Of a DNA stretch of 64,000 nt, positions 33,242 through 34,027 are shown piece after piece (the stretch's first letter is position 1; each line of letters begins with the position of its first letter). The stretch comes from Amphiscolops sp. MND2022 (lineage: Eukaryota): NCBI GenBank assembly GCA_964187785.1, contig OZ076409.1, positions 48,610,001 to 48,674,000 of the forward strand, written 5' to 3'. A model generated the notes under the pieces. The model had not been told where the DNA came from, searched no databases, and was given only the letters and a program-made list of their open reading frames with translations. A program made the translations under genes and the position numbers.

Positions 33242-34027
33242 ATGAATTCAAGCTCATCCACCATCATCGAACAACTAGAAGACGAACGATCCCTGACAGA
33301 CTCCCTAATTAACGAGTTACTTCTACTGCGACAAAAAGTAAACATCACCCCTTATACCGATGAATCAAAAGATTCGGACCGCATCCACGAGGTAAACAAA
33401 AGACTTGATGCACTGGAAATGCGTATTCTACGTATAGAAAAAAAGTCAATTCCCCGGGATTGGAACTTATACAGAGTCATTTGGAGACTCGATCAGTTTA
33501 CCGATATTTTAAAAAATGCGGAAAAATACGAAAAGAGTTTGTCTCATGTAAGAGCACCCTATTGTGATCCTAACAGCCTAAAAGATCTTTGCAGCCCCAT
33601 TTTCTTCTCACAACCCTTTGGCTACACTTTCCATCTTCGAGCTTACCCTTTTGGAATCGACACTGCTAAAGGGAAATACATGTCAGTGTGCTTGGCCATG
33701 TGTCCCGGGCCCTATGACGAGATCCTCATTTGGCCTTTTCAAGGCGTCATTGAGATACACCTGCTCGGCCAGGGAAACATATCCAAGCCTTACAAGCAGC
33801 TGATTGTGACAAACAACAACAACAGTGAGTGCTTCAAGAAACCCCTACCTACATCCAGCAACACAGCCGTCACCATCTTGTGTTTCATCCCTCTTGATGA
33901 AATAATGAACTCCGAAAACCCTTGGCTAAAAAACGATTCCATATTCTTTGAAGTAAAAGTCATAAACACCCTGTACCCCCCTTTCAACTTAATCATTCTA
34001 AAACCCCGGGTGAGTTGTTGTGTTTAA
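33242..34027 (+). CDS. TRAF-like protein: coiled coil plus TRAF-C/MATH domain, no RING or zinc fingers
   Basis: VIWRLDQF...SPIFFSQPFGYTFHLRAYPFGIDTAKGKYMSVCLAMCPGPYDEILIWPFQG...CFKKP...FIPLDEI...LKNDSIFFEVKV is the TRAF MATH signature. It is preceded by heptad-like EVNKRLDALEMRILRIEK, is intronless and uninterrupted, and runs 12 nt into the 3' LTR. Confidence 0.92.
   Translation: MNSSSSTIIEQLEDERSLTDSLINELLLLRQKVNITPYTDESKDSDRIHEVNKRLDALEMRILRIEKKSIPRDWNLYRVIWRLDQFTDILKNAEKYEKSLSHVRAPYCDPNSLKDLCSPIFFSQPFGYTFHLRAYPFGIDTAKGKYMSVCLAMCPGPYDEILIWPFQGVIEIHLLGQGNISKPYKQLIVTNNNNSECFKKPLPTSSNTAVTILCFIPLDEIMNSENPWLKNDSIFFEVKVINTLYPPFNLIILKPRVSCCV

Follow-up and report, generated by a model that had tools for sequence, protein, structure and literature searches.

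The TRAF-like gene at the 3' end of an env-bearing LTR element in Amphiscolops sp. MND2022 is, to judge by comparison of sequences, a real and selected accessory gene of host origin, and the case for its capture is stronger than the window alone shows. Its likely source is the spliced mRNA of a divergent TRAF gene of the host. The window, i.e., the whole stretch of 64,000 nucleotides that was analysed (contig OZ076409.1, positions 48,610,001 to 48,674,000), contains the gene on the plus strand at 33242..34027, with the ATG at 33242, the stop at 34027 and a product of 261 aa.

A coiled-coil helix of residues 40-68 (33359..33445, plus strand), the predicted trimer stalk with heptad positions 44, 48, 51, 55, 58, 62, and 65, is followed by a MATH (TRAF-C) domain of residues 78-242 (33473..33967, plus strand), in which strands 1 and 2 are separated by an insertion of about 15 residues that is specific to the clade. 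Pfam family TRAF-mep_MATH (PF21355) matches residues 116-236 with E 1.1e-21 and 78 bits (cut-off 27.4), and the closest solved relatives are the domains of TRAF1, TRAF5, and TRAF2 (E near 1e-12). The structure model (mean pLDDT 72) consists of helices 2-35 and 41-68 and then a TRAF-C beta-sandwich; a Foldseek search with this fold led to TRAF domains, with TRAF2 at E 3.6e-13. Predicted helix 41-68 and the heptads represent a TRAF-N coiled coil preceding MATH. Translation, Pfam, and fold match agree with the sequence-only reading, which had described an intronless ORF of coiled coil plus MATH at this place. Its statement that RING and zinc fingers are missing holds as well: there is no Pfam match to either, and because residues 1-75 contain one His and not a single Cys, neither can be present there.

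The gene is intronless and the last one of a 20 kb Ty3/gypsy element, in which all membership features of the env-bearing type are present: a TG...CA LTR pair, a target-site duplication, gag, the RT-RNase H-integrase order, and env. The 5' LTR (16286..18666, plus strand), with internal 192-base tandem repeats, and the 3' LTR (34016..36278, plus strand) are about 97-98% identical (65 mismatches in 2261 aligned bases) and are flanked by the duplication GTTG (left copy 16282..16285, right copy 36279-36282). Directly 3' of the 5' LTR lies a primer-binding-site-like stretch starting with TGG (18667..18686, plus strand), for which one search pattern yielded no matching tRNA. On the plus strand follow gag (18709..20110), which has a Retrotrans_gag match in a sister copy; pol (20218..25682), with protease-like, RT, RNase H, and integrase domains in Ty3/gypsy order; two accessory ORFs of 136 aa (28299..28709) and 154 aa (29517..29981), both without a Pfam family; env (30591..32676), a Monjiviricetes-type fusion glycoprotein (PF24664); and orfX (32713..33204, 163 aa, dN/dS 0.11), directly upstream of the TRAF gene. 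No solved structural relative of env was found, which bears on the question of F-type versus gB-type. OrfX is unassigned to any family, with no Pfam and no Atlas match; it has a basic stretch, is conserved in its C-terminal part, and shows 43% identity between the LTR families A and B described below, with a dN/dS of about 0.1.

The 136-aa ORF retains 72% amino-acid identity between subfamilies at saturated synonymous sites, and the 154-aa ORF has a dN/dS of 0.10. Weak mutual similarity among these ORFs of 136 and 154 aa in family A and their counterparts in family B, two of 106 aa (L066, L039), suggests a duplicated accessory family. Between protease and RT, a weak Macro-domain match (window 21170-21360, E 0.0018) stays below the cut-off. 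Further repeat-bounded elements lie downstream at window 37567-42545 and 47296-53668, one of them with gypsy-like gag-pol frames.

Putative splice signals are found at both ends of the element. The LTR carries a splice-donor-like AG/GTAAGT (17020..17027, plus strand) about 135 bases 3' of TATAAA, and the aligned place in subfamily A2 reads CAG/GTTAGT. A splice-acceptor-like site (33211..33227, plus strand) ends 14 bases before the TRAF ATG, and the orfX ATG is preceded by a pyrimidine tract with an AG 10 bases before it. These sites suggest that spliced mRNAs may run from the LTR donor to acceptors before orfX and before the TRAF gene.

The window copy itself is a decayed one. It carries a frameshift in a homopolymer run just 3' of the MATH domain, and due to this late frameshift its frame enters the first 12 bases of the LTR. 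The 261 aa reported by the sequence-only reading are thus correct for the ORF as it stands, but the family norm is 250 codons (22 of the 30 best-scoring copies; 249-252 codons in 24 of 30), and the excess stems from the frameshift. In comparison with an open natural copy, gag is disrupted by one frameshift, pol by three frameshifts and four stops, and env by two frameshifts and two stops, as had been noticed. At these 12 breaks in 10.3 kb outside the TRAF gene, 0.87 breaks are expected in its 753 bases, and the probability of none is 0.42; orfX and both neighbouring accessory genes have no breaks either. The openness of this copy is chance and was rejected as evidence. The description of the gene as still open was not confirmed, and the accompanying caution that a short ORF may stay open by chance agrees with this estimate.

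Evidence for selection comes from the sister copies. A protein search of the genome yielded at least 119 family-A TRAF matches at at least 92 distinct places, a lower bound with 146 of 544 candidates scored. All 30 family-A loci fetched have orfX upstream, a YAG 14 bases before the TRAF start, and an LTR downstream, so the gene is present in the same position in each of them. Seven copies fetched whole have LTR pairs of 98-100% identity, which indicates a young family. Two subfamilies, A1 and A2, differ by about 17% in DNA across the TRAF gene, and their proteins align without gaps at 88% amino-acid identity. Over 245 codons, the window copy and A2 differ at 101 synonymous and 34 nonsynonymous places, which corresponds to a dN/dS of 0.040 (Nei-Gojobori on natural copies; bootstrap 95% CI 0.02-0.07). 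As dS is about 1.5 and near saturation, this value is rough, yet it is far below 1. The neighbouring genes reveal ratios of 0.044 (gag), 0.042 (pol), and 0.017 (env) between the subfamilies. A ratio near 1 and absence from other family members, named by the sequence-only reading as grounds for refuting its proposal, were not what we found. These comparisons support an accessory gene under purifying selection between element lineages. Such selection shows usefulness; it does not imply the direction of an effect. Separately, gag and pol (18709-25682) have a dS of about 0.6 between A1 and A2, and env, orfX, and the TRAF gene (30591-34027) one of about 1.5, a contrast that suggests recombination between element lineages.

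A second LTR family, B, has an identity to A of 71% in pol, 60% in env, 43% in orfX, and 27% in the TRAF gene. About 120 of the 150 matches listed have B-type scores, and the order env-orfX-TRAF is kept in all 31 family-B loci fetched; the remaining 7 of 38 loci comprise two decayed A copies, two of class C (see below), two intron-bearing host-type genes, and one unresolved locus. The family-B TRAF of 325-330 aa has a dN/dS of 0.107 (CI 0.07-0.15). In family B an acceptor-like site precedes orfX but not the TRAF gene, whose start lies only a few bases beyond the stop of orfX. A metagenome contig from elsewhere (JGI; L129), covering only 1.1 kb, reveals env-orfX-TRAF with an A-type TRAF start (one internal stop) next to B-leaning env and orfX, and this pairing argues for an exchangeable TRAF slot.

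Class C is a non-retroviral carrier, represented by 27 matches at 53-59% identity without env or pol. Inverted arms of at least 2 kb at 92-99% identity flank nine of the 14 loci examined; two have shorter arms, and three no arms within 10 kb. In one locus read widely, about 7.5 kb of the arms matched. All 14 loci have kept a GT donor whose codon position matches that of the last intron in the host genes L042 and L105. The class C TRAF has a dN/dS of 0.46-0.75. As a further observation, these loci (L043, L046, L094-L104, L106; e.g., G000:C1:103759000-103788900) have the appearance of a giant palindromic element with the TRAF gene in the loop. Its arms hold a frame with an HYHVL motif, which we take to be HUH-like, and a frame that by eye is PC4-like; neither had a Pfam match above cut-off.

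The closest host relative, L042, occurs at a single place. All three of its junctions examined have GT-AG introns, and its identity to the MATH domains of families A and B is 42% and 49%, respectively; L105 is its paralogue. The N-terminal part of the family-B TRAF also matches the coiled-coil exon of L042. Matches at 72-94% along the full L042 exon were obtained for eight library proteins. In a MATH tree of 38 rows (8 from this genome and 30 from the library, named TRAF1-6 not included; multi-MATH repeat proteins, fragments, and 7 proteins missed by the cutting rule left out), a single clade (100/98) unites the element genes of A, B, and C with the host-type genes and 12 ungrouped library proteins, separate from 13 canonical library TRAFs and the host TRAF L069. 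The insertion between strands 1 and 2 is common to all members of this clade. Host-type rows have short branches and element rows long ones. A joint clade of the A and B TRAFs, as expected of a single capture, was neither found nor rejected (p-AU 0.35). Among the named TRAFs the host-type protein is nearest to TRAF5 (phmmer), without clear orthology.

An upstream exon of L042 carries a CPY-x3-GCPF motif, which by eye resembles that of the last TRAF zinc finger; it matches a Pfam-confirmed TRAF finger exon weakly (E 0.08), and the element genes are without it. From the introns, the conservation, and the extra upstream exon of the host gene we infer a host-to-element direction. The sequence-only proposal of a capture from host mRNA is thereby supported: an intronless element gene falls into one clade with a closest host relative whose examined junctions all show GT-AG introns. 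The donor is probably neither TRAF2 nor TRAF6, which that reading had cited for their dominant-negative forms; it belongs to a divergent clade that is separate from the canonical TRAFs bearing a RING. No RING exon came to light when about 130 kb of sequence upstream of L042 and about 100 kb before L105 were scanned for the motif, with the reservation that split exons could escape such a scan, and none was seen in the library members of the host-type clade scanned. The RING may hence have been absent before the capture. A Cys-rich frame upstream of the host donor was discarded as a RING candidate, since it belongs to another gene-dense element.

Some observations on related genes are added here. 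Eight RING-less TRAFs of the library (P0029, P0038, P0040, P0060, P0065, P0070, P0074, P0124) belong to the same clade, appear uninterrupted through MATH, and may be cargo of other elements. Four library relatives used as queries (among P0004, P0029, P0038, P0040, P0060, and others) had no close match in the genome at strict cut-offs. L107 (G000:C10:42084000-42093900), with Pfam-confirmed TRAF zinc-finger exons, represents a further host TRAF gene to which no MATH exon was linked.

Trimer formation was modelled with three copies of residues 40-245. The score was 0.73, against 0.03 for the best of three controls; the runs agree in at least 78% of contacts, with a pLDDT of at least 78. On the microbial calibration set, 21 of 30 solved pairs and none of 23 single chains attain the score mark. 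The high score may, however, stem from the model's memory of solved TRAF trimers or from resemblance to them. In family A the host ERFVMHLHERIKSLDCGR stretch of the coiled coil has been replaced, and the family sits on a long branch; for both reasons mixed trimers with the host protein are less likely.

We compared the binding groove by means of a TRAF1 alignment and the contact residues listed in PMC6125299. Of the 11 TRAF1/TRAF2 receptor-contact positions, four are kept (equivalents of R393, Y395, S453, and F456); the equivalents of D314, F410, S454, S455, and C469 are among those changed. The canonical Px(Q/E)E/PxQxT groove (hot spots 1-3) is not preserved in the element TRAF, which with these 4 of 11 positions probably does not read canonical PxQxT tails. 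Element protein and host gene alike have the TRAF2 receptor groove remodelled, and they agree with each other at 7 of 11 positions, a weak excess over the 42% background identity. The positions are identical in A1 and A2, which could be chance at an identity of 91%. If the element TRAF competes at all, the contested partners would be those of the host clade to which it belongs.

MATH/TRAF cargo in retrotransposons is already known from planarians. Burro (GYPSM1), as described in PMC6431247, is a giant gypsy-like LTR element which shares MATH_TRAF_C and a mononegavirus-like fusion env with family A, and whose MATH domain forms an accessory ORF in Dugesia tigrina; the authors suggest that its cargo meddles with apoptosis and ubiquitination. 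By this published description, family A is set apart in its layout. Burro exceeds 30 kb, whereas the family-A element has 20 kb; its cargo and env are fused into one polyprotein of 4,873 aa, placed between gag and protease, whereas env is separate and downstream here; and its MATH accessory ORF lies upstream, in contrast to a last gene with its own coiled coil. Burro also adds BIR, BCL2-like, ankyrin, and dUTPase motifs, while the element ORFs scanned here gave no Pfam match to BIR, BCL2, or ankyrin domains. BURRO1 is expressed upon PIWI loss, according to PMC8532177. The env-bearing Ty3/gypsy "errantiviruses" in the wide sense (PMC13524379) resemble family A in gag, Ty3/gypsy-order pol, separate env, LTRs, and many similar copies; family A differs by several accessory genes, the TRAF gene among them. 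The words TRAF, MATH, and macro are absent from the main text of that paper, to which its supplements could add. A TRAF captured by a virus is also represented by ORF111L of the Megalocytivirus ISKNV, which binds TRADD and induces caspase-8 apoptosis; it differs in belonging to a DNA virus and in having kept the RING, according to PMC3352826. We found no published description of family A, and Burro was the only TRAF/MATH-bearing retroelement found, in a search mostly outside subscription papers and Repbase.

As for function, the reading we favour, though at slightly short of an even chance, is that of a putative competitor: the element TRAF would compete with a host TRAF for binding partners and so damp a defence or cell-death signal. 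The LTR donor would be spliced to the acceptor before the TRAF ATG, giving a dedicated mRNA; the product would form a coiled-coil/MATH trimer and bind through the groove that the host protein uses; and the loss of the N-terminal zinc-finger part would remove the downstream output. The changed groove, the failure to find a host RING, and the replaced stalk weaken this reading. The dominant-negative decoy of TNFR, TLR, or NF-kB signalling put forward by the sequence-only reading is a reasonable lead, in which both the mechanism and the pathway are putative. Searches for the NF-kB RHD and TNFR cysteine repeats had no match in the genome, a blank that is uninformative since there was no positive control; TIR domains gave 12 matches.

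The element TRAF could, conversely, act as a positive adaptor that joins or stabilises host TRAF complexes, boosts a survival signal, and keeps element-expressing cells alive, which we regard as unlikely though worth serious thought. Vertebrate TRAF1 has the same anatomy, being RING-less with coiled coil and MATH, and according to PMC6305416 it is largely a positive regulator of TNFR signalling that can act both ways, forming 1:2 heterotrimers with TRAF2 with better cIAP recruitment and enhanced survival signalling. Unlike the element TRAF, which is of another clade, fingerless, and remodelled in the groove, TRAF1 is a host gene that has one zinc finger and a canonical PxQxT groove. The company of BIR and BCL2-like motifs beside MATH_TRAF_C in Burro (PMC6431247) fits an adaptor, as does the larger part of the host coiled-coil region retained in family B, with 49% to the host exon. 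However, family A has lost the host-like stalk sequence, and TRAF_BIRC3_bd had no match in the element proteins.

Less probable still, the MATH trimer has become a repurposed peptide-binding module that binds a new target, an element protein or a host restriction factor, outside TRAF signalling. The long element branches, the low identity of the TRAF gene between A and B (27%, versus 60% in env and 71% in pol), the remodelled groove, and the exchangeable slot of L129 are consistent with such a change of partner. Yet a search for canonical TRAF-type binding motifs revealed none common to A and B in env, orfX, or gag, and the non-retroviral palindromic element, which carries the same TRAF clade, points to a host target.

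That the host has domesticated the inserted copies, benefits from them, and keeps them open is very improbable, in spite of the many open ones (24 of 30 in family A and 20 of 30 in family B). In subfamily A1 the TRAF gene was broken after insertion in 5 of 11 copies and the env tail in 2 of 11, so it breaks as often as its neighbours, and the copy in the window carries a frameshift as well. Family B has 20 of 30 TRAF genes open across 1 kb, compared with 9 of 30 env genes across 2.1 kb, in a sample of loci picked by their TRAF match. Private variants among copies have a pN/pS of 0.23-0.52 in all three genes scored, a similar range that does not single out the TRAF gene. As inserted TRAF genes decay like the neighbouring genes, selection appears to act during replication of the element rather than on the inserted copies. 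A neutral passenger, or a frame kept through overlap with a cis-acting RNA element beside the LTR, is hardly credible: a short 3'-end DNA stretch is alike in A and B though the B gene has already stopped, but over the whole gene dS is 1.5, near saturation, at a dN of 0.06 between the subfamilies, a pattern opposite to RNA-level constraint or drift.

Complex retroviruses and large DNA viruses are well known to carry accessory genes that act on the signalling of the host; in invertebrate LTR elements such genes have, to our knowledge, been little studied. For the MATH domain of Burro, the description available (PMC6431247) gives neither a donor gene nor a test for selection. New here are a donor clade in the same genome, selection measured in two LTR families, and a third, non-retroviral carrier of the same clade with the host intron still inside. 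Most striking among these results is that one and the same host clade was captured repeatedly. It is conceivable, though we advance it with considerable doubt, that in this animal lineage the divergent TRAF clade lies at the hub of a checkpoint, for defence or cell death, directed against mobile DNA, and that unrelated mobile elements each captured a truncated copy to jam it. If so, the captures would have proceeded via mRNA in two env-bearing LTR families and via genomic DNA in a giant palindromic element, and more than 200 mobile TRAF copies would outnumber the two host genes found. Independently of this idea, the donor clade, the selection, and the third carrier point to one host protein as a repeated target of mobile elements, which makes its pathway directly testable.
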